A stretch of 47,721 nucleotides of DNA, taken from the NCBI GenBank assembly GCA_002688135.1, contig NZCD01000022.1, positions 1 through 47,721 on the forward strand, given 5' to 3'. Below, one piece after another: positions 3,205-23,793 of this stretch. Below the pieces are notes generated by a model. It was given only the letters and a program-made list of their open reading frames with translations. It was not told the DNA's origin and ran no database searches. Numbering within the stretch: the stretch's first letter is position 1; each line of letters starts with the position of its first letter. This DNA is from Parcubacteria group bacterium. Its GTDB lineage: Bacteria; Patescibacteriota; Patescibacteriia; Magasanikbacterales; GCA-002688135. The translations under genes were made by a program, and so were the position numbers.

Positions 3205-3206
3205 AC

Positions 3207-4770: not shown

Positions 4771-4785
4771 CCAAAAAATTCAAAT

Positions 4786-4808: not shown

Positions 4809-4863
4809 CATCTTTTAGCGTACTCATGGTACGTGCTCCTTTTTTTGTTTCATCTTGAAACAG

Positions 4864-5055
4864 TTAGTTGTGATCATCCTCGCGCTTCAAGCGACGCTTC
4901 GTGGCCGTCCGGTTATACTTAACCTTCTTTCCCTTCACCGCCTTATGCTTGCGACCCGGAGGAATAGGTGCACCACGCACCGATTTCATGACCTCAAGCG
5001 TGCTAGGCATCTTGAGGACATACTTCTTCTTTTGTCTCTTTTTTGAAGAGGACAT
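4864..5055 (-). CDS. Small, very basic hypothetical protein (63 aa, Lys/Arg rich)
   Basis: ATG at 5055 is preceded by AAGGA with a 7-nt spacer. The product is MSSSKKRQKKKYVLKMPSTLEVMKSVRGAPIPPGRKHKAVKGKKVKYNRTATKRRLKRE.., and I recognise no family. The ORF-track start (TTG at 5061) was trimmed. Confidence 0.5.
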   Translation of the reverse strand: MSSSKKRQKKKYVLKMPSTLEVMKSVRGAPIPPGRKHKAVKGKKVKYNRTATKRRLKREDDHN

Positions 5056-5091
5056 AGACAATTCCTTATACAGTTAGAATATCAACAAATT

Positions 5092-5120
5092 ATGTAAAAG
5101 AAAAGGGCCATTTGTGGCCC
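5092..5120 (-). terminator. Intrinsic terminator ending the GC-rich repeat-module transcript
   Basis: On the minus strand, GGGCCA-caaa-TGGCCC is followed by TTTTCTTTT. Confidence 0.8.
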
Positions 5121-6113
5121 CCGGGCGTATTTACCGCCACAATGCTGCTACATCATGTATACAGACGAGGATAATCAATGCCCCCGATTTGTTAAAAAGA
5201 TCGAACCCGTCAAGTGTGACGGTCGGTTGGCTGTGCAAGCCAACCCCTTGAAACTCAGCCTTTTGAGCCGGTCATTCGAACTCCGCGCAGAGCCGAACCC
5301 TGTGAACCCGGTGTTGTCACCGGTCGGTTGCCTGTGCAGGACCAACCCCTTCTAACCCGCCAACGTAGCGGTCATTCGAACTCCAACGAGGAGACGAACC
5401 CTGTGAACCCAGCGCACACTCCGGTCGACTGCCTATTTAGGATCAGCCCCTTCTAACCCGCCACCACGTGACGGTCATTCGAACTCCAACGAGGAGACGG
5501 ACCCTGTGAACCCGGTGCACATCCCCGGTCGACCCTTGTCCCTCTGAACTCGTGCTACTTAACTTTTCACACGAGGCAAAAGTAAATTTTAATTGACTTC
5601 CGCACCCTTACTGAAAAGGCGATATGCGGAAACGTTGAGAAGGCATCATTCCGATCCTTCAACGTTATTTTTTATTCGATGACCATCATAGCCAAAGTCG
5701 CGCCGCACTCCGTCTTCCAAACGAAGTAAATTGCAGCCCGAATGATGAGGGTGAGACAACGGTCTAGGACCATGTACACATACTTTTCCTCGGGTGGCGT
5801 ATGAAATCGCCGGGTGAGGTGATGTGAATGTTGTCTTTTAAGTTTTCCCAGATGTCCTGCGCTAGAGCGATGAAACACGCGTAAACGATATTCCAATTCT
5901 TTAGTTAGACTAAAGTGCTCAATACAGGAGTATTTGAGATGTAATATGCTGACAAGCAGCATAGATGCTCCTCCTCATCATTCGAGCTAGAATCTTACGA
6001 TTCTACTAGTGTAATGAACGGATGCAGAGGCAGGCACATGACCCGCCGCCGCACGCCGATAGTTACAGATCTGTTAAGCTCTAGAACTATCGACAGACCA
6101 TCTCAGATGATCA
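5100..6113 (-). ncRNA. Candidate large structured ncRNA (family unknown)
   Basis: It is bounded by a near-consensus promoter (6120-6148) and a terminator (5092-5120). It is GC-rich relative to its flanks. It contains three tandem 101-nt hairpin modules and a 19-position long-range helix (5986-5968 with 5756-5738). The non-Watson-Crick positions become G-U only on the minus strand. Confidence 0.5.
5201..5545 (-). repeat. Tandem array of three ~101-nt modules plus partial flanking copies
   Basis: Module starts (GGTCGGTTG / GGTCGACTG, plus-strand coordinates) are at 5221, 5322 and 5423, with a partial copy at 5527. The periods are 101, 101 and 104 nt, none a multiple of 3. The linkers GGTCATTCGAACTCC and CGAACCCTGTGAACCC are conserved. 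Confidence 0.9.
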
Positions 6114-6119
6114 CGATGC

Positions 6120-6148
6120 ATAATATCACATATTAGCAATCTTGTCAA
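6120..6148 (-). promoter_or_regulatory. Near-consensus sigma70 promoter driving the 6113-5100 unit
   Basis: On the minus strand: TTGACA (6148-6143), 17-nt spacer, TATTAT (6125-6120). Confidence 0.7.
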
Positions 6149-6325
6149 CCCCCACATTACTATATTTTAATAAAATCATCATATTTCACTAAATTTAGTA
6201 TAATAGAATTGTAAATAAATAGTTAACATAATGACCTATTTACCGTACAGAGGATAACTTGTATTTCCTCAAAACACATACTTTGTTAACCTAAACGCTA
6301 AGCGCTAAAAGCTAAACGCTATCTC

Positions 6326-7510
6326 ATGAAAGTAGCCCTGATACACGACTACCTCGCACAAGACGGAGGCGCAGAACGCGTCCTCTATGCACTCCAGGAC
6401 ATGTGGCCAAATGCCCCTCTTTTTACATTATTTCATGATAAAGAAACCGCCCATCCGAGATTCAAAGACAAACTAATTCACACCAGCTTTCTAAACAATT
6501 CAAACTTCACAAAAAAACACTACCAATGGTTTTTACCACTCATGCCGCTTGCAACAGAATCATACGATCTGTCTGATTACGACGTTGTCATTTCATCTAC
6601 CTCTGCATTTGCAAAAGGTGTTATCACATCCCCCACCACACTACACATATGCTATTGCCACACACCAACTAGATATCTCTGGAGTGATACACAAAACTAT
6701 GTTGAAGAACTTCGCTACCCATGGTTTGTGAAAAAAATATTACCCTGGTATCTCTCACGATTACGCACATGGGACAAACTCGCTTCAGAACGAGTAGATA
6801 TTTTCGTCGCAAATTCTGACACAGTAAAACAAAGAATCGAAACATACTACAACCGCGATTCACATATTGTATTCCCTCCCGCAGATACACATAAATACAA
6901 ATCAAATAAAGAAACAGGAGAGTACTTTATTATTGGTGGACGCGTAGTACCATACAAACGATTCGATATAGCAGTTCGAGCATGCTCAAGACTAGGCTTG
7001 CCACTTGTTGTATTTGGAGATGGACCAGCGAAAGCCGAGTTAGAAAAAATAGCAGGACCAACAATTAAATTTGTTGGACGAGTTTCAGAATCAACAAAAA
7101 TAAATTTACTTAAACACGCAAAAGCATTCATTCATCCACAAAACGAAGATTTTGGAATTACACCTATCGAAGCAATGGCAGCCGGAGTGCCAATTATTGC
7201 ATACAAAAAAGGCGGCGCGACTGAAACAGTTGTAGATGGTGTCACAGGATTATTCTTCAAAGATCAATCCTGGGAAGCTCTAGCACACATTTTACTCAAT
7301 TTTGACGAGACAGTTTTTGATAGCAGCAAAATCAAACAACACGCTCAAACATTCTCACAATACGAATTCAAAAAGAACATGCGAGAACTAGTTGAGCGCG
7401 AATGGAATAATTTCAAAAACAATGCAGATTTACCAAAAGAAATACAAAAAGAAATACATAACATAATAATACCTCATCCAAAATCTTCAATTCTCACTCC
7501 TCACTCTTAA
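6326..7510 (+). CDS. Glycosyltransferase, family 4 (GT-B, group 1)
   Basis: N-terminus MKVALIHDYL.QDGGAERV, and a C-terminal EDFGITPIEAMAAGVPIIA E-x7-E region. Confidence 0.85.
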   Translation: MKVALIHDYLAQDGGAERVLYALQDMWPNAPLFTLFHDKETAHPRFKDKLIHTSFLNNSNFTKKHYQWFLPLMPLATESYDLSDYDVVISSTSAFAKGVITSPTTLHICYCHTPTRYLWSDTQNYVEELRYPWFVKKILPWYLSRLRTWDKLASERVDIFVANSDTVKQRIETYYNRDSHIVFPPADTHKYKSNKETGEYFIIGGRVVPYKRFDIAVRACSRLGLPLVVFGDGPAKAELEKIAGPTIKFVGRVSESTKINLLKHAKAFIHPQNEDFGITPIEAMAAGVPIIAYKKGGATETVVDGVTGLFFKDQSWEALAHILLNFDETVFDSSKIKQHAQTFSQYEFKKNMRELVEREWNNFKNNADLPKEIQKEIHNIIIPHPKSSILTPHS

Positions 7511-7513
7511 CAT

Positions 7514-8608
7514 ATGATCCTGTTTGACGCGCGAGCATTACAAGGAGAACAACCAACTGGCGTAGGCAATTACACAAAACAAATCGCCAACGCATTAAAA
7601 AAATCTGAACTAAATCACAACATTCAATTCCTTCACACTGGAATAAAACAAACTCACGCAGAATCTGTACGCATTCCAAATAAATTACTTAATCTTGGAA
7701 TGCTTCTTGCTGATACACCCACACTAGAACAATTATCCAAATCCAAACCATCGGTAATTTTTATTCCCAATCTTAACTTTGTTGCAACAAATCCCGAAAC
7801 TCCATACATACTCACCGTTCATGATCTTTCATTTCATCATCACCCACAATGGTATTCAAAAAAAATGAGATTGTGGCACAAAGCCGTGAATCCCAAAAGA
7901 CTCATCCAAAATGCTAAACATGTTATTGCAGTATCACGCGCAACACGAAATGATTGCATCAAAACATTCAATATCCCTGAAAAAAACATCACAACAATAT
8001 ACCCGGGAATCACACAATACAAACCTTCCGCACAACAACCACTCATAAAACAACCTTACATCCTCTCGATCGGCGCGATAGAACCACGAAAAAATTTGCA
8101 AGTACTATTTCGAGCATTTATAAAACTAAAAAAGAAACATCCGTCTCTTAAACTAGTGCTTGCAGGGCCAGTTGGACACAAAGGAAGAAAAATCCTCAAT
8201 TCAATGAAACATGAGGATGTCACATATCTTGGATATGTCACACATCAAACAAAAATAAACCTTCTCACACACACAAAAATTTTCGCATATCCGTCACTCT
8301 TTGAAGGATTCGGATTCCCCGCACTAGAAGCAATGATGACAAAAACACCTGTCGTCGCCTCCTGGACAACATCTCTTAAAGAAATCCTGGGAGACAACGC
8401 CCTATTGACTCATCCTCATAATCATGATGAATTAGAACTAGCAATCGACAGCATACTGGCCGATCAATCGCTCACAAACAAATTAACAGAACAAGGATAC
8501 GCTCACGCACAAACATTCACCTGGAATCGCTGCGCCACCCAAACCGCTGAAATACTCAAAAACACAACGAACAAAACTCAATCCTCACCCCTCAATCCTC
8601 AATCCTAA
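7514..8608 (+). CDS. Glycosyltransferase, family 4 (group 1)
   Basis: PSLFEGFGFPALEAMMTKTPVVAS signature. The gap to the upstream GT is 3 nt. Confidence 0.85.
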   Translation: MILFDARALQGEQPTGVGNYTKQIANALKKSELNHNIQFLHTGIKQTHAESVRIPNKLLNLGMLLADTPTLEQLSKSKPSVIFIPNLNFVATNPETPYILTVHDLSFHHHPQWYSKKMRLWHKAVNPKRLIQNAKHVIAVSRATRNDCIKTFNIPEKNITTIYPGITQYKPSAQQPLIKQPYILSIGAIEPRKNLQVLFRAFIKLKKKHPSLKLVLAGPVGHKGRKILNSMKHEDVTYLGYVTHQTKINLLTHTKIFAYPSLFEGFGFPALEAMMTKTPVVASWTTSLKEILGDNALLTHPHNHDELELAIDSILADQSLTNKLTEQGYAHAQTFTWNRCATQTAEILKNTTNKTQSSPLNPQS

Positions 8609-8611
8609 AAT

Positions 8612-9730
8612 ATGCACATAGGAATCGACTCCCGAATGTACGGCCCAAAAAACGGCGGAATCGGCAGATACGTCGAGCAACTCATCACAAACCTACTTGA
8701 AATTGATCGTACGAACACGTACACATTTTTTGTTCAACCAAATCAAACCATTCCTCACCACTCAAAACGCATAAGATTAATTGAAACTCCAATCAGATGG
8801 TACAGCCTTGCAGAGCAAACCATATTCCTCTCACTACTCAAAAAACATCCCGTAGATCTCATGCATTTCCCACACTGGAATGTGCCACTTTTATTTAACA
8901 AACCTTTCATAGTCACAATACATGATCTCATTCTCATCCATCACCCGAACAGAAAAGCAAGCACACTACCACTTCCGCTGTACAAACTAAAGTATGCAGC
9001 ATTTAAAAAAATTCTGAATCATGCAGTTAATGCATCACAACATATTCTAACTGTTTCAAATTTCAGCAAACAAGACATTATCAAAACACTAAATATTCCA
9101 TCAAAAAAAATCACCACAACTCACCTTGGTGTCAGTCATAGCAATCAACAAACAAGCTCACAAACATCGAATGTTCCTTATATGCTTGCTGTTGGCGTAC
9201 AATATCCTCATAAAAATCTTACATTTCTGATGGATGTATTTGAATCTCTGAAACAATCACCTGAATCACACTGGAATCTCGTAATCGCAGGACCAAAAGG
9301 GCCATTCTCAAAACAAACACAACAATACGCAAATAACATCAACAAAAAAATTGAAGGATCAAAAAATGGACGTATTTTCTGCAGATTCAATCTTCCAGAT
9401 GAAAACATCGCAGACCTCTACAAAAACGCACAAATCTTCCTTTTTCCAAGCTTATACGAAGGATTCGGCTTACCCCCACTTGAAGCTATGCAGGCCAGCA
9501 CTCCTGTAATTGCAAGCAATGTCTCTTGTATGCCAGAAATACTAGGAGGCGCAGCATGCCTTGTGAATCCAACATCACAACAAGAATGGATGAATGCAAT
9601 TCATACCATTACCACCAACCCAACATACAAATATACCCTCACCTCTCGAGGTCACGAACAGCTCAAGAGATACTCCTGGATCTCCTGCGCTTCATCCACA
9701 CTTGCAGCCTACAATTCTGCGTTAAAATAA
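8612..9730 (+). CDS. Glycosyltransferase, family 4 (group 1)
   Basis: [24 protein letters not shown] signature. It is a paralogue of the preceding gene. Confidence 0.85.
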
Positions 9731-9813
9731 GGTATAATGTGGGGGTAACAGAGACGTTGCGGAATGAAGCGTCAAAAAGCTTAAAGCTAACAGCTAAAGC
9801 CAAAAAGACCCCC

Positions 9814-12174
9814 ATGCCCAGGAGGAAAAAACAATTGAAGAAAATAAAAATTATTCAAGGGAAATCTCATAGACAGTCCCCTCATCTTTTGGCGTTAGAA
9901 AAAAAAGATGGCGTATTCATGTTGTCCGATGGACGTGAGCTCAAAAAATCCGATGTTGAAAAAGCAATGATGCACGATCTTGAAAATGTATCAATAGCGA
10001 CAGACCATCAATTTACAAAATTCCAACCAATTAAATCTCGAAAGATTGATCGAAATATTACCATTGATTTGGTAAACAAAAATCGTCCAATTGGAGATGA
10101 TCATGTCATCATTGACGATCACATCGAAAACGCATTTGCTCAATATCACAAACCACAAAACGTTCGATTACGAAAAAATGCAACCCGACCATCAATCACT
10201 TCAGTATCAGTACACAAGCAAAACGCTCATCACCATGTTGTACGAACAACAATTATATTTGCCTTAGCTGCTTTGCTCATCACTGCACCACTCTACACGG
10301 CCCGATTTGTCGCACACGCACAATACACTCGCGAAGCACTTAAAAACATCTCACAAAATGTTGTATCATCGCTCAAAAAAGTTGGTGGTAGTATTATCGC
10401 AGGAAACGATTCTCGAGCTGAAGCTGAATTCGATAATGTCCATGCTGAATTTGCACACGCAGTACACCTCCTCGAATCATTTGAACGTGACACATCGCTT
10501 ATTGCATCAACCATCCCACCAGTTCGAAGCAAGGTAAAAACAGCCCAAGCACTTTCCGCTGCTGGACTACACATCTCTCAAGCAATACAATCAATCAAGA
10601 CTGATCTTGCCGAAAATGCTGACACAAATGAATTTTCACAACTAGCAACAACACTGTCATCAGCACGGCAAGAACTCGAATTTGCACAACGAGAAATTAA
10701 TCGAGTAAAAATTGAAGCACTACCAGCTGATATACGCCCATTATTTACATCCCTCAAAGATGAATTTGATTCACTATTACCAGCCTTACAAGTCGGAGAA
10801 AAAACAACCGCTACCCTTGCCAGCCTATTAACCACACACCCCCGCCAAACATTCCTCGTACTCTTTCAAAACAATCATGAAATTCGCGCAACCGGAGGAT
10901 TCTGGGGAAGTTTCGCTATCGTCACAGTAAAAAACGGAAAAGTAGAGTCGTTCGACATCCCAGGAGGTGGTACATACGATTTACAAGGACAACTCGATCG
11001 TCACATCCGCCCACCAGCCCCAATGCAACTCGTACGCAAGAAATGGCAATTTCAAGATGCCAACTGGTTTCCAGATTTCCCCACATCAGCTGAAACAGCA
11101 ATCTGGTTTTTGGAACATTCAAATTACGGAACTCCAGATGGCGTGATTGCAATTACACCAAATGTTCTAGAAAAAATTATCGAATTAACCGGACCAGTTG
11201 AATTACCTGAATACGAAAAAACACTGGATGAAAATAACATCACACAGGAACTACAAATTGCAGTAGAACTCGAATATGACAAAGAAGAAAACAAGCCTAA
11301 AGCAATCGTAGGAGATCTTGCCGAAATCCTGATGGAACGAACGAAAAATTTATCAGCAGCACAAAAAGTTGGACTACTTTCAATCATTCATGATTCACTC
11401 AACACCAAAGATATTATCGCCTATCACAAAGATGAAGAACTACAACAAACATTAAAAGACGCAGGATGGGCCGGAAATGTAAATCAAGAATGGAATGATG
11501 ATTTTTTGATGGTTGTTAACCACAACATCGCTGGACAAAAAACAGACGAAAAAATCGTTCAAGACATTATCAAAAAAACCAACATTCACGAAAACGGAAC
11601 AATCACATCAACAGTCACAATACGACGTACGCACACAGGAACAAAAGGCGATTTATTTTCAGGTGTACGAAACGTAAATTATATGCGTGTACTCGTACCA
11701 GAAGGCTCTGAACTAATCCACGCAGAAGGATTCACATATCCAGAAGAATCATACTTCAAAGTTCCCGAAACATTTGAATCACACGAAACACTCGAGGCCA
11801 TCGAATCTCAAGGAACATACCACGCACCATCTGGAACTCGCATAACCACCGAATCCGGTAAAACAGCATATGGAAATTGGACAATGACAGACCCACAAGG
11901 CACCACTGTTGTAAAACTCACCTATCGTCTACCTATCGTCATACAAGAACACACACCAAACAGCATCATAGAATCCCTCGCAGACGAGTCAATCTCATAT
12001 AAACTACTTACTCAAAAACAACCAGGTGCAGATAATACCACAATGACGCACTCTATCGCCGTACCAGAAAGCTGGAGCATTATCGCCAGCACAGACACAG
12101 ACGGCGATCTCTTAGAATCCTCTCCACTTGATGGAGATTTGGTTTCTGGTATAGTGATGAAACGAAATGAATAG
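9814..12174 (+). CDS. Membrane-anchored DUF4012-family protein
   Basis: One TM segment (TTIIFALAALLITAPLY), then FLVLFQNNHEIRATGGFWGSFAIV, which I recall as typical of DUF4012. The start is set at ATG 9814 (MPRRKKQ) because the ORF-track start at 9526 overlaps the GT gene in another frame. A TATAAT lies at 9733-9738. Confidence 0.7.
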   Translation: MPRRKKQLKKIKIIQGKSHRQSPHLLALEKKDGVFMLSDGRELKKSDVEKAMMHDLENVSIATDHQFTKFQPIKSRKIDRNITIDLVNKNRPIGDDHVIIDDHIENAFAQYHKPQNVRLRKNATRPSITSVSVHKQNAHHHVVRTTIIFALAALLITAPLYTARFVAHAQYTREALKNISQNVVSSLKKVGGSIIAGNDSRAEAEFDNVHAEFAHAVHLLESFERDTSLIASTIPPVRSKVKTAQALSAAGLHISQAIQSIKTDLAENADTNEFSQLATTLSSARQELEFAQREINRVKIEALPADIRPLFTSLKDEFDSLLPALQVGEKTTATLASLLTTHPRQTFLVLFQNNHEIRATGGFWGSFAIVTVKNGKVESFDIPGGGTYDLQGQLDRHIRPPAPMQLVRKKWQFQDANWFPDFPTSAETAIWFLEHSNYGTPDGVIAITPNVLEKIIELTGPVELPEYEKTLDENNITQELQIAVELEYDKEENKPKAIVGDLAEILMERTKNLSAAQKVGLLSIIHDSLNTKDIIAYHKDEELQQTLKDAGWAGNVNQEWNDDFLMVVNHNIAGQKTDEKIVQDIIKKTNIHENGTITSTVTIRRTHTGTKGDLFSGVRNVNYMRVLVPEGSELIHAEGFTYPEESYFKVPETFESHETLEAIESQGTYHAPSGTRITTESGKTAYGNWTMTDPQGTTVVKLTYRLPIVIQEHTPNSIIESLADESISYKLLTQKQPGADNTTMTHSIAVPESWSIIASTDTDGDLLESSPLDGDLVSGIVMKRNE

Positions 12175-12213
12175 CGCATGTAGAGCTCTTGCAAACACAT
12201 CTAGAAAAGAAAC

Positions 12214-12264
12214 AAAATCGGCCTTTCCTAGCCGATTTTATCCTGCGCGAAGACGCACGAATCT
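12214..12264 (+). repeat. Composite repeat: terminator-like hairpin plus REP-like hairpin
   Basis: ATCGGC-ctttccta-GCCGAT followed by TTTTATCCTGCGCGAAGACGCACGAATCT. The same composite occurs at 27249-27298. Confidence 0.8.
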
Positions 12265-12325
12265 ACAATGCAAGTAACCCACAGATATCATAGAAACAAA
12301 AGGACGCATCACTAATCAGCGACAT

Positions 12326-14185
12326 ATGGCAAAAACACCCAGAACAACAAAAACACCATCACCGAAGAAGCGAGAACCACGCAGAAAAATAACAAGAAAA
12401 CGCAAAATTGATAACTCTTTATCATCTGTCTACGGGGAGACCCCACGCAAGAAAAAAGCCGTATCTCAACTAAGAATGGCGCGAAGCCGAAAAAAAAGCC
12501 GATCATCGTTCATTATCGTAACACTCATCATCACTGCTTTTTTTGCTGCCCTCTCATGGGTAGGTTTTTACTTCTTTTCAGGAAGCAACACATTTAATGA
12601 TCGAAACATCTCACTTTCTATAGATACACCAAAAAACATAACATCAGGCGATGAGATCAGCTTCACCATTCATTATCGAAATAATCAAAAAGTAGCTCTA
12701 AAAAATACTGATCTACGAATCAAACCACCAACAGGATTCATTCTCGAAAAAACAGAGCCAAAAGCTAACGGCACTAATGACTATCATTTTGACTTAGGTA
12801 CGCTAAAGAAAAACACAAGCGGAAAAATCATTATCAACGGAACATTCATAGGCGCCAAAGATGGAAATCACGAAATAACCGCTTTCTTTACATATCGACC
12901 AGAAAACTTCAACTCTGATTTTGAAAAAACCAAAAATGAAGTTCTCAACGTTGCAAAGTCACCACTAACATTCTCAACCCAAGGGCCAGACGACGTAGCC
13001 GCCGGCGCACAAGCCACATATAGTCTTGAATTAAAAAATGTATCAAAAAACAAAATCGAGGGAATGAAGGTTGTTGTCACAGCTCCAGATCAATTCGTAC
13101 TGTCATCAATGGATCCAGAACAAAAAAATGAATATGTTTTTCTAATCGATTCACTAGAAAAAAAAGAAACATGGAACGGTAATTTTGTCGGATCTTTTAA
13201 AAACAGCACACAAGGAGAACAAACATTTACAATAGAAAATTACATCATTCGCGATGAAAAAGAATTTCTTCAAAATGAAACCAAACACTTCACAAACGTG
13301 ACATCACCACAACTTGAAACAACACTCAAAATAAACGACTTTCAAAAGAAAGGAAGTGTTGCGCCAGGAGCTTCATTCAACGCACAGCTAGAAGTAAAAA
13401 ATAACGGAACTAGCCCAATGGAGAACGTGGAATTAGTTCTAGAAATCGAAACACCTGCAGCAGATGGAAAAGCTATTGTAGATTGGGAAGCACTAAAAAA
13501 AAATAAAAAACTAAATCTAGTAACCGAAGATGTTGCAGACAATCGCCAACGCGCAACAATCACATGGAATGGTGAAAATACAAAAGAACTAGTATCCCTA
13601 GCGCCAGACACAAAAAACGGACAAGAACTGCAAATACCCGTGTTAACACCAGAAGCCTTCGGTGGTATTCTGCCCGGCAATACAATTATAGTCCAAGCAA
13701 AAACATCAGCATCAGGCGGACCACAATCACAAACAGCCCCATTTGAAATCACATTACGATCTGACACAAACATTACAGCAAATATCACAGCTGCAGGAGA
13801 CCCTGTAGTTGGAATCGGACCAGATGGATTAACTGAAGTTAGTGTAAGACAATACGATCTTGCTATCACAATAAACAATTCTCTTCACGAAATTATCGAT
13901 CTAGAAATTCTCACATTGCTTGCAGAGGACGTAATATTTGAACAAGCAATTAATGTACCAGCCGGAGAACTCCAATTCATTCCCAATAAAAAAACTATCA
14001 GATGGACACTCAACAAACTCCCACTTTCTGTTCCTGAATTAACATATGTGGTACGCATTGACACCATCACACCGATCGGAGATGTAGAAAAAAACGAACT
14101 CATAAATAATATCCAACTCACCGCCATAGACGCAATATCCGACGTACCATTCAAAATCAAACTAGGAGCAATCAATAAGCGGTAA
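12326..14185 (+). CDS. Hypothetical membrane-anchored surface protein with repeated beta-sandwich-like segments
   Basis: A basic N-terminus, one TM segment (FIIVTLIITAFFAALSWVGFYFF), then several segments resembling CARDB/DUF11-type repeats (ISFTIHYRNN..., YSLELKNVSKN..., FNAQLEVKNNG...). Confidence 0.6.
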   Translation: MAKTPRTTKTPSPKKREPRRKITRKRKIDNSLSSVYGETPRKKKAVSQLRMARSRKKSRSSFIIVTLIITAFFAALSWVGFYFFSGSNTFNDRNISLSIDTPKNITSGDEISFTIHYRNNQKVALKNTDLRIKPPTGFILEKTEPKANGTNDYHFDLGTLKKNTSGKIIINGTFIGAKDGNHEITAFFTYRPENFNSDFEKTKNEVLNVAKSPLTFSTQGPDDVAAGAQATYSLELKNVSKNKIEGMKVVVTAPDQFVLSSMDPEQKNEYVFLIDSLEKKETWNGNFVGSFKNSTQGEQTFTIENYIIRDEKEFLQNETKHFTNVTSPQLETTLKINDFQKKGSVAPGASFNAQLEVKNNGTSPMENVELVLEIETPAADGKAIVDWEALKKNKKLNLVTEDVADNRQRATITWNGENTKELVSLAPDTKNGQELQIPVLTPEAFGGILPGNTIIVQAKTSASGGPQSQTAPFEITLRSDTNITANITAAGDPVVGIGPDGLTEVSVRQYDLAITINNSLHEIIDLEILTLLAEDVIFEQAINVPAGELQFIPNKKTIRWTLNKLPLSVPELTYVVRIDTITPIGDVEKNELINNIQLTAIDAISDVPFKIKLGAINKR

Positions 14186-17110: not shown

Positions 17111-18604
17111 TTACGCCGACAAACTCGCCAGCGACACAATCAAGTGTACACCAAATCCATTCGCTCCACAATGTAATGTCGGCCCATCTGATGTATTCCA
17201 CGCGTTCGCCATATCAACATGTCCCCATGAATAATCCGTAAATTCCTGCAAAAATGCCGCAGCAGATGACCCACCTGCCTGCCCACGTCGTCCAGTATTT
17301 TTCACATCAGCCACCTTACTTTTAATATGTTCCGTATATTCCGACCCTAACGGCAATTCCCAAACAGGATCCCCAGAAGCCTTTGTTGCTTTCATCATAT
17401 TCGTTCGCACATTCTTATCCTGTGTAAAAAATCCAGAATAATGCGTTCCAAGCGCCACAATACATGCACCAGTTAGTGTAGCAAAATCAACAACATATTT
17501 TGGTTTATACTTCGCCGCATAACTCAATGCATCCGCCAAAACCAACCGCCCTTCCGCATCAGTATTCAAAACCTCAATCGTCTTTTTATTTCTAGCTGTC
17601 AAAATATCTCCAGGACGCAAGGCAGATGCGCCAGGCATATTCTCCGCACAAGCTAAAATCCCCACAGCATTCACCTTCAACCCCAATTGCGCAACAGCAT
17701 GCACACCACCAGCAACCGCAGCAGCCCCTAACATATCAAACTTCATTTCATCCATTTTCGAAGATGGTTTAATTGAAATCCCACCAGAATCAAATGTAAT
17801 TCCTTTTCCACAAAACACAATTGGAGCGTCATCCTTCTTGCCGCCCTTATATTCCATAATCACCATTTGCGCTTCCTCAACAGAACCCTTGCTCACACCC
17901 AAAATCGCACCCATCCCCATCGATTTCATTTTCTCCTCATCCAAAACACGGACTTTCACCGCGGTTCCTTTACACGCTCTCCTCACATCGTCCGCTAAAC
18001 TTTTTGGTGTCATATCTCCCGCCGGATGATTTCCTAAATCCCGAGACCAGTTTGCAGATGCTGCAATTGTCTGTGCACGCGCCGCCCCACTCTTAACACT
18101 CTTGGCATCTGAAACAGAAAGAAAAACCAAAGATTGCGGATCAAGCAACCTCGCATCCTTCTTTGTAATATATTTTCCAAAATGATACGTCGAAAGCGCC
18201 AAAGCTTTAGTCGTCAATCCCGCAAAATGATGAGATTTCAATTTCTTTTCCAATTTAGAATCACTCAAAACAACATATGAAGCAGTCTTGCTTTTCTGAC
18301 AAACAATAAACGCCCGAGAAGTAGCTCCAAAATAAACTGAAGAATCAATCTTCTTACGCTCACCCAAACCAACAAAACAAACTCGTTTTATTTTCACTTC
18401 TTTTACAGTCGGCAAAACAACGATCTGATTCACTTTCCCCTCAAAATCGCGATTACGCACAGTCGCAGAAAAAGCTCCCCCTACCAACCCATCAACCTCT
18501 TCAAAACGTGCCTCTGAAAGTTCCCCCTCACAAAAAAAAGCGACCAACACATCCCCCTCAATCTCACCTAATTCCTCCTTAGAAACATCAATTTCAAATG
18601 ACAT
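17111..18604 (-). CDS. pepA: Leucyl aminopeptidase (M17)
   Basis: NTDAEGRLVLADAL and the surrounding M17 catalytic region. The start is set at MSFEIDV because the longer ORF start translates a REP-like repeat. Confidence 0.9.
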   Translation of the reverse strand: MSFEIDVSKEELGEIEGDVLVAFFCEGELSEARFEEVDGLVGGAFSATVRNRDFEGKVNQIVVLPTVKEVKIKRVCFVGLGERKKIDSSVYFGATSRAFIVCQKSKTASYVVLSDSKLEKKLKSHHFAGLTTKALALSTYHFGKYITKKDARLLDPQSLVFLSVSDAKSVKSGAARAQTIAASANWSRDLGNHPAGDMTPKSLADDVRRACKGTAVKVRVLDEEKMKSMGMGAILGVSKGSVEEAQMVIMEYKGGKKDDAPIVFCGKGITFDSGGISIKPSSKMDEMKFDMLGAAAVAGGVHAVAQLGLKVNAVGILACAENMPGASALRPGDILTARNKKTIEVLNTDAEGRLVLADALSYAAKYKPKYVVDFATLTGACIVALGTHYSGFFTQDKNVRTNMMKATKASGDPVWELPLGSEYTEHIKSKVADVKNTGRRGQAGGSSAAAFLQEFTDYSWGHVDMANAWNTSDGPTLHCGANGFGVHLIVSLASLSA

Positions 18605-18612
18605 ATGCAGCG

Positions 18613-18640
18613 TGTCATCCTGAGCGAAGTCGAAGGATCT
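18613..18640 (+). repeat. REP-like hairpin repeat
   Basis: TGTCATCCTGAGCGAAGTCGAAGGATCT, located in the pepA 5' UTR. Confidence 0.8.
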
Positions 18641-18717
18641 CGCAATCCTATCCACTCAAGTTTACTAAGATCTCAACTTACCAAAATCTTGTTCTCATCG
18701 CAACATTTCGTTAACTA

Positions 18718-18747
18718 TTGACATTCAAGTTAACCAAATGGTATAAT
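18718..18747 (+). promoter_or_regulatory. Promoter of the HTH-doc operon (leaderless-type spacing)
   Basis: TTGACA, 18-nt spacer, TGGTATAAT (extended -10). The ATG is 8 nt after the -10 and there is no SD. Confidence 0.7.
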
Positions 18748-18755
18748 AGACTCAT

Positions 18756-19013
18756 ATGAACAAAAAAAAATACTACTCAACAACAGAAGTCGCCCATCTG
18801 CTCAACATGAGCAGAATTGCGATATTCAAAAAAATAAAGAATGGAGATATCAAAGCAAATAAAATAGGAAGATTGTATAAAATTGAACACAGAGAAATTG
18901 CACATCTTCTACAAGGCACACTCACTCCTGCTGACAAAAAACGCATTGAGCAAGCTGTCAAAAAAACAGTGAAAGAATTCGGCGAAACACTCAAATTACT
19001 CGGCAAAGAATAA
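18756..19013 (+). CDS. Excisionase/MerR-like helix-turn-helix DNA-binding protein, putative antitoxin
   Basis: YSTTEVAHLLNMSRIAIFKKIKNGDIKANKIGRLYKI fits the HTH_17 excisionase-type motif. It ends 4 nt upstream of doc. Confidence 0.7.
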   Translation: MNKKKYYSTTEVAHLLNMSRIAIFKKIKNGDIKANKIGRLYKIEHREIAHLLQGTLTPADKKRIEQAVKKTVKEFGETLKLLGKE

Positions 19014-19017
19014 ACGC

Positions 19018-19443
19018 ATGGCAAAAATAAAGGATGTTACAATCACTGAAGTAGAATATATTGCACATCGCCTGGCAACAGAAATCATGATATGGAATGA
19101 ACCCATTCCTAATTTTTCATCGCGCGAACCCCACAAATTGGAAAGTTGTGTACAAACACCATTTCAAACATTCGACGGAAAACTATTATATAAAGGACTG
19201 ATCGATAAAGCCGCAATCTTATTTTATCTCATGATTAAAAACCATCCTTTTCAAAATGGAAACAAGCGAGTAGCCATGACGACATTACTAGTCTTCCTTC
19301 ATAAAAACAAAAAATGGCTCAAAGTAGATAATCAAAAACTCTACAATTTCGCCAAATGGATCGCGTCAAGTGACCCAACCGTAAAAAAGCAAACCGTAGA
19401 AGCAATCGCAGAATTTCTAAAAAAACATCAGATAAAAATGTAA
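19018..19443 (+). CDS. doc: Fic/Doc family toxin (death-on-curing type)
   Basis: HPFQNGNKRVAMT matches the Fic motif HxFx(D/N)(A/G)NKR. The size (141 aa) fits Doc. Confidence 0.85.
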   Translation: MAKIKDVTITEVEYIAHRLATEIMIWNEPIPNFSSREPHKLESCVQTPFQTFDGKLLYKGLIDKAAILFYLMIKNHPFQNGNKRVAMTTLLVFLHKNKKWLKVDNQKLYNFAKWIASSDPTVKKQTVEAIAEFLKKHQIKM

Positions 19444-19451
19444 AAAAAGAA

Positions 19452-19487
19452 GGGTACAGGTCGTGCCTTAACACGTTACCTGTACCC
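19452..19487. terminator. Shared hairpin between convergent doc and the small-peptide operon
   Basis: GGGTACAGGT-16 nt-ACCTGTACCC. On the minus strand it is followed by TTCTTTTTTT. Confidence 0.6.
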
Positions 19488-19608
19488 ACTCCTTACGCTA
19501 CATCTCCCACTACAGCGACATGAGACCGGCGATTAGCGCGGTTGTCAAGCTGTAGGGATAGATAAGAAGCAAAAAAACGAACCTCTTCTTCCAGCTCATC
19601 AAGACTCC

Positions 19609-19788
19609 TTAATCAGCTTTGGAAAGCTCTTCGTCACTCGGAACAGGCCGGTGACGAACACGGAGACGACACGACTCTTCAGCCGCGGACGAATCCGCAA
19701 TACTGAAATCGTAGCGCCCCGGCCACTTCTTGTCGATCTTGTCAGCCACGCGACTCAATTCATCGCGAGAACCAGACCCTATCGACAT
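19609..19788 (-). CDS. Hypothetical soluble segment (start uncertain)
   Basis: The ORF track gives 19609-19872 with a TTG start and no SD, and it overlaps the 35-aa ORF in another frame. Here it is trimmed to the first ATG (MSIGSGS). It may instead be fused to 19827-19934. Confidence 0.3.
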   Translation of the reverse strand: MSIGSGSRDELSRVADKIDKKWPGRYDFSIADSSAAEESCRLRVRHRPVPSDEELSKAD

Positions 19789-19826
19789 CCAATCAATCAC
19801 ACGATTCGCTTCGTTTATGATACTCC

Positions 19827-19934
19827 TTAGATCCCCATCAGAATCGGCAGTAAAGCCGAGACAATGAAACAAGCAGCTATGAACCCAACAGACGCAAGCA
19901 TCTGCCGCGGCGCAGACTTCGCTAACGACATCAT
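19827..19934 (-). CDS. 35-aa hydrophobic peptide
   Basis: A GGAGG sits 5 nt upstream of ATGATG. The product is MMSLAKSAPRQMLASVGFIAACFIVSALLPILMGI. It is below the ORF-track size cut-off. Confidence 0.5.
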   Translation of the reverse strand: MMSLAKSAPRQMLASVGFIAACFIVSALLPILMGI

Positions 19935-19943
19935 TTCAGCCTC

Positions 19944-20177
19944 CTAAGCAGCCATGCTGGTTGGATGCTCAACAACAGCACGAGACTCCGAAAAGTCCAG
20001 TACCGAAACGCGAAACGCCTCGCTTCCGAGACAGCTCTCGCAACCCTCACAGTCACCCGGATGGTCAATCATCGACCAGAACCCCCAACACATCACCAGC
20101 ACAATGCCGACGATCATCAAAGGCGCCACGATCAACGCAACCAACAGAAACAAACCAGTACTCAATATTCGATCCAT
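19944..20177 (-). CDS. 77-aa membrane peptide with CxxCxxC tail motif
   Basis: A GGAGGGGG sits 4 nt upstream of ATG 20177. The product begins MDRILSTGLFLLVALIVAPLMIVGIVLVMCWGFW and continues to GDCEGCESC. Confidence 0.6.
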   Translation of the reverse strand: MDRILSTGLFLLVALIVAPLMIVGIVLVMCWGFWSMIDHPGDCEGCESCLGSEAFRVSVLDFSESRAVVEHPTSMAA

Positions 20178-20255
20178 GTATCCCCCTCCAAAAAGTAGGT
20201 GAGGTGCGACACACATTGCCGCACCCCCACATTCAGTCAGCCTTCATGGCCAATC

Positions 20256-20432
20256 TCACGTACCTCGCTCGAACCAACACGGCTTACGATCACAAGGGTG
20301 ATCGGGTGAGCACGTGTATCGACACGGTCCGTAATCGCTGGTGAGGTTGGACGCCCCAACGCAGAAAGCGAATGCCAAGACGACCAAAATCGCCTTGAGC
20401 ACGAACCAGAACGCTGCGATCAGAAAACTCAT
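20256..20432 (-). CDS. 58-aa membrane peptide with Cys-rich tail
   Basis: Its ATG overlaps the stop of the upstream ORF (ATGA), and a GGGAGGA lies 6 nt upstream. The product is MSFLIAAFWFVLKAILVVLAFAFCVGASNLTSDYGPCRYTCSPDHPCDRKPCWFERGT. It is not in the ORF track, which lists an 80-aa ORF in another frame. Confidence 0.55.
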   Translation of the reverse strand: MSFLIAAFWFVLKAILVVLAFAFCVGASNLTSDYGPCRYTCSPDHPCDRKPCWFERGT

Positions 20433-20650
20433 ATCTCATCCTCCCTGATGCAAATCCCACATCCGACACAATTGTCGGCATGCGAGATCTCCATGAAAAA
20501 GCCAATGATCCCCAGCAGCAGAAAACCACCAAACGCCAGAATCATGATCGTGAGAGCCAACGCCTTGACGACGTCAGCAAACATCACCCCAAAAATAACC
20601 AGGGCGACGATCAAACTGATCACCTTGAGCAATTCCTTCAAAATCTCCAT
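20429..20650 (-). CDS. 73-aa two-TM peptide ending in CVGCGIC
   Basis: An AGAGGAG sits 5 nt upstream of the ATG. There are two hydrophobic helices. The C-terminal NCVGCGICIREDEI resembles the first half of a 4Fe-4S ferredoxin CxxCxxC motif. Confidence 0.6.
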   Translation of the reverse strand: MEILKELLKVISLIVALVIFGVMFADVVKALALTIMILAFGGFLLLGIIGFFMEISHADNCVGCGICIREDEI

Positions 20651-20740
20651 CTCATCTCCTCTTTTCGATTGTCTATGACCTGTGACAACGCGGTGAATTC
20701 CTCCAAATTGAGTAGAAATCCTCCATGCATTGAACGCCTA

Positions 20741-20769
20741 AGAATATCATAAAAAACGCATTTTGTCAA
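20741..20769 (-). promoter_or_regulatory. Promoter of the small-peptide operon
   Basis: On the minus strand: TTGACA (20769-20764), 17-nt spacer, TATTCT (20746-20741). Confidence 0.65.
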
Positions 20770-20848
20770 TGCTAACATTGCTGTATTTGAATTAAAACGC
20801 AATATTTAACTAATTTTAGAACTATATTTATGTAAAGTAATGTATAAC

Positions 20849-20872
20849 AAAAAGACCTTTTCAGGCCTTTTT
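20849..20872 (-). terminator. Terminator after ileS
   Basis: On the minus strand, AAAGGCC-tgaaa-AGGTCTTT (one G-U pair) is followed by a T-run. Confidence 0.6.
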
Positions 20873-20889
20873 CAACTATCCAAGAAAAC

Positions 20890-23697
20890 CTATTTTATAA
20901 TAGAAATAGCAATGCCCCCCACCTCAACATCTCCCGCATCACCAAACTCAACAGAATCAGACTTTGTTGAAACTAAAATATATTCCTCATGAACATTAAA
21001 TACCGCTTTTCCTGATTCAGAAACAATTAAAGTTATACGATCAGTAATAGTTAATCCTGCATCTTTTCGCATACCATTAATAGTTCGCACTAACTCACGA
21101 GCCACACCCTCCAATCTCAATTCATCATTTAATTCAATATTCAATCCAACCGTCATCCCCTTATCTTCATGTGACGGCCAATCATTTTTCTCAAATACAA
21201 CTTCTTTTACATTTAACTCTTCTTTCAAAATCTCAATATACGCATCTTCAAGTTTCGCACCATCAATTGCAATGGCTGCCAAAGGCTGGCGAACCTTCAT
21301 ACTATTTTCTGCACGCAATCTCATGCCAATCTCAACCACATCACGCGTTTGCTGCATCGCTTTCAATAACTCCTCATCAACCTTTCCAGATTCTGGCCAA
21401 TCATCTAAATGTACACTCTCCTTTTCACCACCGACTGCACCATAAACCCTCTCTGCAATAAAAGGAGTAAACGGCGCTATCAATTTAGAAGTCTCCAAAA
21501 GCACATGCTTCAAAACATCTACAACACCTTCCTCTCCAGATTTAAATCGCCCACGAGATCGGCGCACATACCACGTTGAAACTTCAGTGATAAAATCATG
21601 TAGTGCGCGTGTCGCTCGCGTCAAATCATATTTATCCAAATGCCCCTGAACTGTTTGCGTTGTTTCAGCCAATCGAGAAAGTACCCATTTATCCAACGCA
21701 GAATCCGCCATCTTGCCTGTCGCACCATCTTTATATAATTCATAAAACTTCAAAACATTCCACAAAATCATCAAAGTCCGACGTTTCGCCTGGTCAACCC
21801 CCTTCATATCAAAACGCTTCGGCTCACCAGCAGCACTCATCGAAAAGAAATGCCAACGCAACGCATCTACACCGTGCGTATTGATAACTTCCCACGGCTC
21901 AACAACATTCCCCTTAGACTTCGACATCTTAAATCCCTTACCATCCAAAATATGCCCTAAACAAATCACATTTTTATAAGGCGCTTCCTTTTCCAATAAC
22001 GTCGCCACGGACAACAACGTATAAAACCACCCACGCGTCTGATCAATCGCCTCCGCAATATAATCCGCTGGATAATGATTATTCAATTGATCTTCAGAAC
22101 CTTCTTTGTGCGGAAACCCCCATTGCGCAATCGGCATGGCCCCAGAATCAAACCACACATCCATCACTTCGGGCACACGCTTCATTTTCTTATCACATTT
22201 CTCACAATCCAATTCAACCTCATCAACATACGGTCGATGTAATTCAATATCCGAAACCCCCAATTCTTTTGCAGAACCAACACACTTCATCTCGCCACAC
22301 TCACACATCCAAATCGGCAAAGGTGTACCCCAATATCGCTCACGAGAAATCGCCCAATCATGAATATTATTCAACCACTCCCCAAATCGACCATCTTTTA
22401 TATGAGATGGCTCCCAATTAATTGTTTGATTATTCGCAACCAATCGATCCTTCACATCCGAAACACGAATAAACCACGAATCCCGCGCATAATACAAAAG
22501 CGGTGTTTTGCATCTCCAACAAAACGGATATTCATGTTCATACATTTCCTCACCAAACAACAAATTATTCGCCGTCAAATGATCAATAATCGCCTGTTCT
22601 GTTTTTGGATCCTTCACATACTTCCCAGCCAAACCAGAAACCTCATCTACAAAATTCCCCTCCTCATCAACCGTATGGAACTTAGGCAATCCAACACCCT
22701 CACCAAATTCATAATCATCAATTCCATACATCACAGCAGTATGCACCACACCCGTTCCATCAACATCCGTCACAAAATCCGCAGCATACACTTTGTATGA
22801 TGTATCACTTTTCAAACTTGGAATATCAAATAATGACTCATACGAAAGCCCAACCAATTTCGAACCTTTCACTTCCTTCACAACCTTATATTCACCCTCT
22901 AAAATCTCCAATCGATTTTTTGCGAGAATCAATGTCTCATCACCAGTATCAACATATACATAATCAACACCATCACCGACAGCCAACGCAACATTCCCAG
23001 GCAACGTCCACGGCGTTGTAGTCCAACTTAAAATATACGCATCCTTCTCATCTACAACTTTAAACTTCACAAACACAGATCGATCTTTCACAGTCTGATA
23101 ACCCTGCGCAACCTCATGTGAAGAAAGTGCAGTCCCACATCGGCTACAATACGGCACAACTTTATGAGACTGATACACCAAACCCCTCTCCCACATCTGC
23201 TTAAACACCCACCACAAGCTTTCTATATATTCATTTTCATAAGTTACATAAGGATCATCCAAATCCAACCAAAACCCAATACGCTCCGTCAATCGACTCC
23301 ATTCATCCAAAAACCCCCACACCATATCCTTACATTCTGCATTAAACTTTTTGATACTCGCAACTGGATCACCCGGCACAATATTTTCAATTTGCGGTTT
23401 CCCAGAAATCCCCAACTTTTTCTCAACCTGCAATTCCACCGGCAACCCATGCGTATCCCATCCAGCCTTTCGATCAACATGAAATCCTTGCATAATTTTG
23501 TATCGCGGAATCACATCTTTAAATACGCGAGCCAAAACATGATGCAGCGCCGGCTTTGCATTCGCTGTCGGCGGCCCTTCATAAAACACAAAATCCCCTT
23601 CCGGAGATTCCTTTTTCTGTACCAAATCAAAAATTCCCTTCTCCTTCCACATTTCCAAAACCTTCTTTTCTTCCTCAGCAAAATTGTTTGTAGACAT
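20890..23697 (-). CDS. ileS: Isoleucine--tRNA ligase
   Basis: PPTANAKPALHHV (HIGH region), KMSKSKGN (KMSKS), a CP1 editing domain, and CxxC zinc knuckles. The start is set at MSTNNFAEEEKK. Confidence 0.95.
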   Translation of the reverse strand: MSTNNFAEEEKKVLEMWKEKGIFDLVQKKESPEGDFVFYEGPPTANAKPALHHVLARVFKDVIPRYKIMQGFHVDRKAGWDTHGLPVELQVEKKLGISGKPQIENIVPGDPVASIKKFNAECKDMVWGFLDEWSRLTERIGFWLDLDDPYVTYENEYIESLWWVFKQMWERGLVYQSHKVVPYCSRCGTALSSHEVAQGYQTVKDRSVFVKFKVVDEKDAYILSWTTTPWTLPGNVALAVGDGVDYVYVDTGDETLILAKNRLEILEGEYKVVKEVKGSKLVGLSYESLFDIPSLKSDTSYKVYAADFVTDVDGTGVVHTAVMYGIDDYEFGEGVGLPKFHTVDEEGNFVDEVSGLAGKYVKDPKTEQAIIDHLTANNLLFGEEMYEHEYPFCWRCKTPLLYYARDSWFIRVSDVKDRLVANNQTINWEPSHIKDGRFGEWLNNIHDWAISRERYWGTPLPIWMCECGEMKCVGSAKELGVSDIELHRPYVDEVELDCEKCDKKMKRVPEVMDVWFDSGAMPIAQWGFPHKEGSEDQLNNHYPADYIAEAIDQTRGWFYTLLSVATLLEKEAPYKNVICLGHILDGKGFKMSKSKGNVVEPWEVINTHGVDALRWHFFSMSAAGEPKRFDMKGVDQAKRRTLMILWNVLKFYELYKDGATGKMADSALDKWVLSRLAETTQTVQGHLDKYDLTRATRALHDFITEVSTWYVRRSRGRFKSGEEGVVDVLKHVLLETSKLIAPFTPFIAERVYGAVGGEKESVHLDDWPESGKVDEELLKAMQQTRDVVEIGMRLRAENSMKVRQPLAAIAIDGAKLEDAYIEILKEELNVKEVVFEKNDWPSHEDKGMTVGLNIELNDELRLEGVARELVRTINGMRKDAGLTITDRITLIVSESGKAVFNVHEEYILVSTKSDSVEFGDAGDVEVGGIAISIIK

Positions 23698-23712
23698 ACA
23701 AGTAACATCAAC

Positions 23713-23793
23713 TGTCATTGCGAGAAGCGAGGTACGAGCGACGAAGCAATCTTATACTTCCAAGATTGCTTCGTCGCTCCTCCTCGCAATGAC
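23713..23793. repeat. Palindromic GTCATTGCGAG...CTCGCAATGAC element
   Basis: An 81-bp near-perfect inverted repeat: TGTCATTGCGAG..GCGACGAAGCAATCTT / AAGATTGCTTCGTCGC..CTCGCAATGAC. It lies in the ileS 5' UTR. Confidence 0.85.

Follow-up and report, generated by a model that had tools for sequence, protein, structure and literature searches.

The ZAS motif, H-x3-C-x2-C (Pfam zf-HC2), is found in RsrA, RsiW and ChrR; MerT, MerF and MerE are small Cys-bearing membrane proteins of mer operons; and 4Fe-4S ferredoxins are marked by the ligand pattern C-x2-C-x2-C-x3-C-P. We examined a G+C-rich islet (positions 19490-20700) that invites comparison with all three. It lies in a stretch of 47,721 nucleotides (nt) from a Parcubacteria group bacterium (NCBI GenBank assembly GCA_002688135.1, contig NZCD01000022.1), the whole of which is referred to here as the window. 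The islet contains six small open reading frames (ORFs), named A to F, on the minus strand. On the sequence evidence presented below it is probably a genuine, translated and clade-specific operon that has been inherited vertically between ileS and pepA, and we propose that it encodes a metal/redox membrane complex. By analogy, the unit would work most like the small Cys membrane peptides of metal systems or the ZAS-type switches, although it is a member of neither group.

Proteins A and C have the exact H-x3-C-x2-C spacing of the ZAS motif (H39, C43 and C46 are invariant) plus one extra Cys, and the motif likewise sits in a small protein next to a transmembrane (TM) helix. A workable analogy for A and C is a membrane switch based on a thiol or on Zn. 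They differ from the ZAS proteins in that the motif follows the TM helix instead of preceding it, is confined to about 11 residues and is not part of a four-helix anti-sigma domain. No zf-HC2 match was obtained at E<=10, and no sigma-factor domain was reported among the called genes of the related loci or the 20 scanned ORFs of the window. As in the mer operons, one operon encodes several peptides of <=80 amino acids (aa) that have conserved cysteines and one or two TM helices; unlike the mer proteins, they show no Pfam or NCBIfam similarity, the cysteines of A and C have the spacing CxxCxxC plus His rather than occurring as CC or CxxC pairs, and no MerR, MerA, MerP, metal transporter or regulator is encoded nearby. 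The islet proteins also share size, hydrophobicity, omission from annotation and narrow range with the lineage-specific small membrane proteins of prokaryotes, but are set apart by the presence of six of them in one conserved operon, by a paralogous metal-type motif, by a soluble partner, and by the retention of an unusual base composition.

A preliminary description of this DNA, made without database searches, had likened the sequence CVGCGIC of protein A to the first half of a 4Fe-4S motif. The likeness holds for the ligands: the first three, together with the typical Gly, are matched by CVGCGIC in A and by C-x-G-C-x2-C in C. It does not extend to the fourth Cys-Pro or to the rest of the fold, which are missing from both A (CVGCGICIREDEI) and C (CEGCESCLGSEAF); a cluster in either protein would need the upstream His or a second subunit. 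Nor were the profile cut-offs reached. With the ferredoxin profiles Fer4, Fer4_2 and Fer4_6 (Pfam PF00037, PF12797, PF12837) and fdxN (NCBIfam), protein A gave matches exactly on the CxxCxxC stretch that remained below threshold (E 0.006-0.017; 15.5-16.9 bits against gathering cut-offs of 21.1-25), and C and its three orthologues gave no Fer4 match at E<=10.

Searches of Pfam, NCBIfam, PHROGs, PADLOC and PDB sequences, and Foldseek searches of PDB and BFVD, yielded no significant match for the islet proteins. A profile of C had no match among PDB sequences, and no match to the islet was found in scans of viral contigs and phage DNA. When the structural model of E was compared with PDB and BFVD by Foldseek, the best matches (E 0.26-0.4) represented generic beta-alpha-beta-beta noise; two IF3-C-like proteins among the top matches were not significant and were set aside. 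These results agree with the earlier view of an operon of small membrane-anchored Cys-motif peptides without recognisable family, and the Pfam comparison proposed at that time returned no peptide match above cut-off.

Homologues were sought by an exhaustive phmmer search of 1.84 billion representatives, which recovered relatives of C (P0003, P0007, P0006) and E (P0004, P0005, P0009, P0010) only. Indexed-database searches with C or E alone returned only self matches and P0004, and scans of genome and metagenome contigs with profiles of E and C added no further lineage. Three lineages besides that of the window (W), all from marine metagenomes and here called R1, R2 and R3, share the islet locus between ileS and pepA. 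The common gene order in R1-R3 is rpiB-ileS-[small ORFs]-pepA-x-ruvA-femAB...DUF4012. R1 (L010-L018, including the contig CAZHVT010000014.1 from an NCBI metagenome-assembled genome, MAG) carries A, a remnant of B, C, D, E and F; R2 (L019-L022) carries C and E only; and R3 (L023, L024) has cca inserted after ileS, followed by C and E only. Across the four lineages the identity is 82-90% for IleS, 78-89% for PepA, 41-62% for C and 29-65% for E. W and R1 are mutually closest in the identity matrices of C, E, IleS and PepA, which do not settle the order of R2 and R3. Because R2 and R3 retain nothing but C and E, these two genes are the conserved and probably ancestral core, with A, B, D and F as accessories of the W/R1 branch. 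In one R1-type contig (L013, 1023-3858), ileS was called as two pieces, of 331 aa and 88 aa, separated by a 139-aa ORF that runs on the other strand, an arrangement that could represent an insertion or an assembly chimera.

Table 1. Positions of the predicted features of the islet and of the adjoining doc module in the window (SD, Shine-Dalgarno sequence).
Feature	Position	Strand	Description
Islet transcription unit (predicted)	19441-20769	-	Promoter, leader, six SD-led small ORFs, terminator
Promoter TTGACA-17-TATTCT	20741..20769	-	-35 at 20769-20764; -10 at 20746-20741; TG in 17-nt spacer
5' leader, ~90 nt	20651..20740	-	Two SD-like GGAGG boxes without conserved downstream ORF
ORF A, 73 aa	20429..20650	-	Two TM helices, then ISHADNCVGCGIC, then acidic end; paralogue of C
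ORF B, 58 aa	20256..20432	-	One TM helix, then tail CRYTCSPDHPCDRKPC; ATGA overlap with A
Intercistronic G+C-rich hairpin and T-run	20201..20227	-	Between A-B and C-F halves; 11 pairs, terminator-like
ORF C, 77 aa	19944..20177	-	Start MDRIL; N-terminal TM helix, knuckle, acidic disordered linker, C-terminus VVEHPTSMAA; core gene
ORF D, 35 aa	19827..19934	-	Basic N-terminus (AKSxPRQ), then TM helix; SD AGGAGG
ORF E, 59-69 aa	19609 to 19788/19800/19818	-	Soluble; motifs DW-x-x-IG-x-GS, KKWPGRYDF, RLxVRHRP; core gene
ORF F, 29 aa	19510..19599	-	MSWKKRF, then TM helix; SD AAGGAG
15-bp inverted repeat	19502..19563	-	Encloses 3' half and stop codon of ORF F
Intrinsic terminator	19441..19487	-	10-bp outer stem GGGTACAGGT/ACCTGTACCC, inner CGTG/CACG stem, T-run; hairpin 19452-19487
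HTH_17 and Fic/Doc module	18718-19443	+	HTH_17 18756-19013; Fic/Doc 19018-19443; perfect TTGACA-18-TATAAT promoter 18718-18747; 35% G+C

The predicted unit runs on the minus strand from a promoter through a conserved leader and ORFs A, B, C, D, E and F to a terminator (Table 1). The promoter, which had been proposed earlier as the unit's own, was recovered in a promoter scan with 10/12 consensus matches plus a TG ahead of the -10 element, and nucleotide conservation of its -35 element, spacer T-run and -10 element extends to all four lineages. The terminator is likewise conserved in 4/4 lineages, and compensatory pairs (G-C to A-T and A-T to G-C) can be read by eye in the alignment. Its hairpin had been described as shared with the neighbouring doc gene; it belongs instead to the islet, for relatives lacking doc also keep it, with compensatory substitutions. 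All six ORFs are preceded by GGAGG, AGGAG or AAGGAG at proper spacing, this extending to E and F the earlier count of at least four Shine-Dalgarno (SD)-led ORFs, and the 73-, 58-, 77- and 35-aa peptides of that count correspond to A, B, C and D with the TM segments, Cys motifs and ATGA overlap ascribed to them. Matches to a strong SD plus start codon have a density of 7.3 per kb in the islet compared to 1.5 per kb per strand elsewhere. A strong SD precedes 6/6 islet ORFs compared to roughly 6/32 neighbouring genes, based on inspection of upstream sequences by eye, and most host genes have none.

Several additional elements within the unit are worthy of consideration. The leader contains conserved blocks in the four-lineage alignment, including a candidate hairpin CAATGC...GCGTTG for which RNAalifold gave only -4.6 kcal/mol and in which 2 pairs are changed on both sides; a weak hairpin may be present. 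A leader riboswitch was rejected, the consensus structure being weak, and so was a leader peptide, because its candidate, a short ORF opening in the leader, lacks conservation across lineages. The intercistronic hairpin is kept in R1 with one loop change, has a local folding z-score of -2.5 to -3.3, and may serve as an internal attenuator or as a processing/stability element. The inverted repeat around the end of ORF F has folding z-scores of -4 to -6.5 and differs between W and R1 by one substitution per arm (AGC to AGT; GCTG to ACTG); from a by-eye reading of the register, these substitutions may face each other and would then keep the pair. Covariance models of Rfam 15 gave no match in the islet at gathering thresholds, and at E<=10 only noise of <=18 bits.

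The knuckle of protein C, H-x3-C-x-G-C-x2-C-L-G, which contains the sequence DCEGCESC noted previously, follows directly upon the TM helix. H39, C43, G45, C46 and C49 are invariant in four C orthologues as well as in the paralogue A, giving the pattern [ILF]-x-H-x3-C-x-G-C-x2-C-[LI]. The C-terminal end of C is also conserved as VV[ED][HY]PxS[MLI]AA-COOH; a ...xAA-COOH end resembles ssrA-like degrons and PDZ-protease signals, a resemblance to be taken as a lead only. The AlphaFold2 (AF2) model predicts a helix at residues 2-37 with a predicted local distance difference test (pLDDT) score above 90 and a tail with scores below 50. Proteins A and C are paralogues based on a BLASTP match at E=1e-5, both contain CxxCxxC, and each has the invariant His upstream of it. 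The R1 orthologue of A is 70% identical. An identical copy of A is encoded on 11 contigs from marine metagenomes (Tara and others), each of which matches the window at 100% and so represents the same population.

The second core protein, E, is predicted to be soluble, and its AF2 model has a compact beta-alpha-beta-beta(-alpha) fold with a pLDDT of 79. The start of E is ambiguous among ATA 19818, GTG 19800 and ATG 19788. The codon that is ATG in R1 (L018 2544) is ATA in W (19816-19818), 4 nt after a conserved AAGGAG, so that either ATA would start E in W or initiation would have moved to GTG 19800 or ATG 19788. An E-family motif, ...INEKWPGRYDF..., was also seen as part of a longer open reading frame on a contig (L028 1818-1859; 36.6% G+C) from a MAG with the label Terriglobia, and the E-family helix-plus-loop motif may therefore also be part of larger proteins. 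The accessory proteins D and F are both found in R1 and absent from R2 and R3. The R1 orthologue of D is 41% identical and keeps the AKSxPRQ motif, and that of F is 86% identical, the differences amounting to 8 synonymous and 4 non-synonymous changes. We considered a lipoprotein signal (IAAC) in D and rejected it, R1 having VVWC instead and the mature part amounting to just 14 hydrophobic residues.

ORF B is the least secure of the six. No orthologue was found in the relatives, so conservation gives B no support in W, and R1 keeps a mere remnant in which ATG has changed to ATA and 134 nt are deleted. Gene callers choose a 63-aa alternative frame at this locus. The third-position G+C content (GC3) of B at 0.64-0.66, its TM helix, its SD (AGGGAGG) and its ATGA coupling weakly favour B over that frame. 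A hydropathy scan predicts two TM segments in A, a single one in each of B, C and D, and none in E; F falls below the length cut-off of the scan, but a basic N-terminus and a hydrophobic stretch can be recognised by eye. Gene callers leave D and F uncalled and put B in another frame, and in this way miss or mis-frame half of the operon.

We determined synonymous (dS) and non-synonymous (dN) divergence between W and R1 by the method of Nei and Gojobori. The values were dS 0.78 and dN/dS 0.26 for A, 0.88 and 0.35 for C, 0.72 and 0.32 for E, and 0.59 and 0.11 for F; for D, dS was saturated and dN/dS was 0.24. The flanking genes gave dS 0.75 and dN/dS 0.08 (ileS) and dS 0.78 and dN/dS 0.10 (pepA). 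The dN/dS values of 0.11-0.35 indicate purifying selection on the five comparable peptides, so that it is the peptides, and not just the DNA, that are conserved, as the preliminary description required of a coding region. The islet dS of 0.59-0.88 (A, C, E and F), compared to 0.75-0.78 in the flanks, indicates that the islet has diverged in step with the chromosome. GC3 exceeds the G+C content of first and second codon positions in A, B, C, D and F, a pattern that coding sequence should show, the exception being E. Long antisense ORFs (112-153 codons) are present in every lineage, but their frames differ between W and R1 and their dN/dS of 0.96 is neutral; they were dismissed, and are probably a by-product of an A-poor sense strand.

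That the islet is primarily a structured non-coding RNA, or the remains of some larger gene, in which the small ORFs are incidental, is thereby largely refuted by dN/dS values below 1 and seems to us extremely improbable. G+C-rich islands in A+T-rich genomes are often structured RNAs, every 150-nt segment in about 19430-20700 has a negative folding z-score (mean about -2 in W and -1.8 in R3), and hairpins with substitutions in both arms exist. These z-scores are near background in R1 (-0.6) and R2 (-0.5), however, the consensus structure of the leader is weak, and there was no Rfam match beyond noise. An SD stands at the correct spacing before every ORF, and TM helices and motifs are conserved despite near-saturated four-fold sites. 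No known non-coding RNA and no sign of a decayed gene, either of which had been named earlier as grounds for abandoning the operon, was found.

The islet has a base composition of 51.4% G+C compared to 41.7% for the window. The contrast noted originally was confirmed, with 56.7% at 20041-20100 and 35.2% in doc. No other 1.2-kb stretch of the window is as rich in G+C as the islet (0.518; the mean is 0.416 and the standard deviation 0.024, which puts the islet about 4 standard deviations above), and the islet is G+C-rich in all four lineages. GC3 is 0.52-0.73 in the six islet frames compared to 0.28-0.41 in 32 neighbouring genes. Host genes show an extreme strand asymmetry at third positions. 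Most minus-strand genes have frequencies of 0.02-0.07 for C (C3), about 0.3 for G (G3) and about 0.43 for T (T3), and plus-strand genes are complementary (G3 0.06-0.13, C3 about 0.24), examples being ileS at 20890-23718 (minus) and the stretch 6326-14185 (plus). The minus strand looks like a leading strand under very strong mutational skew, and the islet, though on that strand, lies outside the skew: C3 is 0.19-0.34 in A, B, C, E and F and 0.11 in D, and A at third positions is 0.05-0.12. In the orthologues from the other lineages C3 is similar for A, C and F and lower for D and E (0.08-0.17).

A comparison of four-fold degenerate sites bears on the age of this composition. Between W and R1, C makes up 21-22% of these sites in the islet of both lineages, with 0.57 of the sites identical, compared to 4-5% in the flanks, with 0.52 identical. 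Between W/R1 and R2/R3 the islet sites are about saturated (0.23-0.42 identical; expectation 0.31), yet GC3 remains high in every lineage at 0.57-0.60 for C and 0.42-0.56 for E. The retention of GC3 despite near-saturated sites indicates that the composition is a maintained equilibrium and not that of unameliorated foreign DNA. Mean folding z-scores of the islet are about -2 in W, -0.6 in R1, -0.5 in R2 and -1.8 in R3, and about 0 in the flanks; with clearly negative values in W and R3 and near-background values in R1 and R2, messenger RNA (mRNA) structure as a cause of the high GC3 receives modest support.

The preliminary description had taken the islet for a horizontally acquired cassette on account of its G+C content. 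In this form the claim does not hold. The unit occupies the same locus between ileS and pepA in all three further lineages and is G+C-rich in each, its dS equals that of the flanks, and no integrase, transposase or att-like repeats were found at the islet. The only flanking direct repeat (14 of 17 nt) was discounted as an att site because its left copy lies inside doc, a gene that the relatives lack. Among the usual features of a genomic island the islet thus shows atypical composition, but neither absence or discordance at the locus nor mobility genes or repeats. A foreign origin, with DNA from a mobile element or from an SD-using donor of higher G+C having entered beside a toxin-antitoxin module, can still draw upon the atypical composition (G+C 0.51 compared to 0.417; C3 0.19-0.34 in A, B, C, E and F compared to 0.03-0.06 in same-strand neighbours), upon the strong SDs before all six genes where most host genes have none, and upon distant homologues of E on two unrelated contigs. 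On one of these, of 71% G+C, the E homologue is flanked by a gene that by eye looks like a Ser/Thr kinase and by what, again by eye, looks like the start of uvrA; on the other, of 52% G+C, it stands among small genes directly after a small TM ORF. These features leave room for an ancient transfer into the ancestor of the clade. Recent transfer is contradicted by the synteny and the dS values, by GC3 that holds steady at near-saturated sites, and by the phage and viral collections, in which the islet has no match, and we consider a foreign origin unlikely. The islet appears instead to have been inherited vertically within a narrow marine small-genome group.

The part of the locus specific to W is the doc/HTH module. 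It fills the spacer between the islet terminator and pepA and is absent from R1, R2 and R3, indicating a strain-specific insertion in W. The islet does sit next to a toxin-antitoxin module, as had been stated, but a functional link does not follow, the adjacency being accidental in view of the lack of this module in every relative.

These data lead us to propose a small metal- or redox-binding membrane complex as the likeliest role of the islet proteins. Four invariant potential ligands lie within 11 residues beside a TM helix and are duplicated in a paralogue, a configuration that we read as a metal site at the membrane surface. In this model metal would be bound at the membrane surface by the His-Cys3 knuckle of C, joined by that of A in lineages carrying A, the metal being Zn or an Fe-S cluster shared between subunits. 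The knuckle could be either a reversed zinc knuckle or three-quarters of an Fe-S ligand set, with the remaining ligand supplied by the His or by another subunit. Together the small proteins would form a complex in the membrane that handles or senses metal or redox state, E being its soluble partner; C and E would be the core, to which the W/R1 branch adds A, B, D and F.

Several observations weigh against this proposal. Transcription and translation of the islet are predicted from sequence, and the profile and structure searches identified no homologue of known function for its proteins. B is lost in R1, and A, B, D and F are all absent from R2 and R3; with four lineages only, the statistics are thin. 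Some members of the R1 population have lost about 57 nt of C in frame, a deletion seen in two independent samples (L013 about 4535 and L015 about 1002) with the junction blurred by a few repeated bases. A matching 56-aa variant (P0008) lacks 21 residues that include half of the TM helix, the His and the first Cys, and C is thus dispensable in that part of the population. If the positive-inside rule is applied, C may have its acidic Cys-rich tail on the outside, across the membrane from E, in which case the cysteines of the tail could form disulfides rather than bind metal. The lasting G+C-rich and C3-rich composition is also not accounted for by a membrane complex. A variant that addresses this last point, in which a private membrane micro-complex of peptides of <=80 aa with an 11-residue His-Cys3 site for Zn or a shared Fe-S cluster is combined with selection at synonymous sites that holds the G+C- and C3-rich composition against strand-specific mutational bias, seems to us rather improbable.

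We also considered a small-toxin, holin or bacteriocin-immunity module, in which a hydrophobic peptide (F, D, B or C/A) would harm membranes and E, for example, would neutralise it, the whole acting as a selfish or defence cassette. The peptides are very short and hydrophobic with basic N-termini, and in outline F and D are similar to type I toxins. Strong hairpins are common in the mRNAs of such toxins, and F lies within one (the inverted repeat described above). The variation in gene content between lineages and the deletion of C in part of the R1 population could be viewed in the same way. Against this, no match was found in PADLOC or PHROGs, and there is no conserved antisense ORF and no antisense promoter, the only promoter-like site of the plus strand in 18500-21200 being that upstream of the HTH gene. 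The conserved core of C and E is not the toxin-like part of the operon. The position of the unit, its strong promoter and its co-divergence with the host in reduced genomes are unlike those of addiction or defence islands, and no transporter, modification enzyme or peptidase gene is found nearby as would be expected for a bacteriocin. A toxin or immunity module is accordingly a decidedly doubtful explanation, and the evidence leans towards a metal-binding site over a role in bacteriocin action or phage lysis.

Other features of the window were noted in the course of this analysis. The gene content of the window and the related loci includes a split transketolase, RNase J, FemAB, DUF4012 and fermentative enzymes, with few SDs, and from this combination the hosts are probably Patescibacteria/CPR. 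Upstream of several genes (at 18756, 29407, 33957 and 35149) a TGGTATAAT or TGGTATACT box ends ~7-8 nt before the ATG and an SD is lacking, so these mRNAs may be leaderless; by eye, anything resembling an SD can be seen before only about 6 of 32 genes. Short repeats rich in C and T, TCTCACTCCTCACTC and CCTCAATCCTCAATCC, are located at 7492-7513 and 8590-8611 (plus strand), directly upstream of two consecutive SD-less GT4 glycosyltransferase genes, and may be a non-SD initiation signal or a repeat. A second G+C-rich stretch at 4731-6325 (1.6 kb; up to 0.59 at 5200-5500) has no ORF above 96 aa; it contains a tandem array at 5220-5531 of about 3.1 copies of a 101-nt unit (80-83% matches) with no Rfam match at E<=1, and is a candidate structured RNA or repeat element. 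A bacterial class A RNase P RNA at 2489-3205 (plus strand) scored 110 bits, just above gathering, and with 717 nt for a 367-position model it seems to carry insertions of about 350 nt.

A metal/redox membrane complex encoded by this islet would define two new small-protein families of narrow range, one combining a TM helix with a His-Cys3 knuckle and the other having a KWPGRYDF motif in a beta-alpha-beta-beta fold, and it would provide a compact example of metal binding by membrane peptides in poorly understood bacteria with reduced genomes. Stable as the compositional anomaly is in four lineages, the islet also illustrates that a G+C-rich island alone is no evidence of recent transfer. The question that it raises is what maintains the local composition next to genes with a third-position C of 3-6%. 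Should selection at synonymous sites be responsible, this would imply a second function at the RNA level, or unusual demands of expression, placed upon the same sequence.

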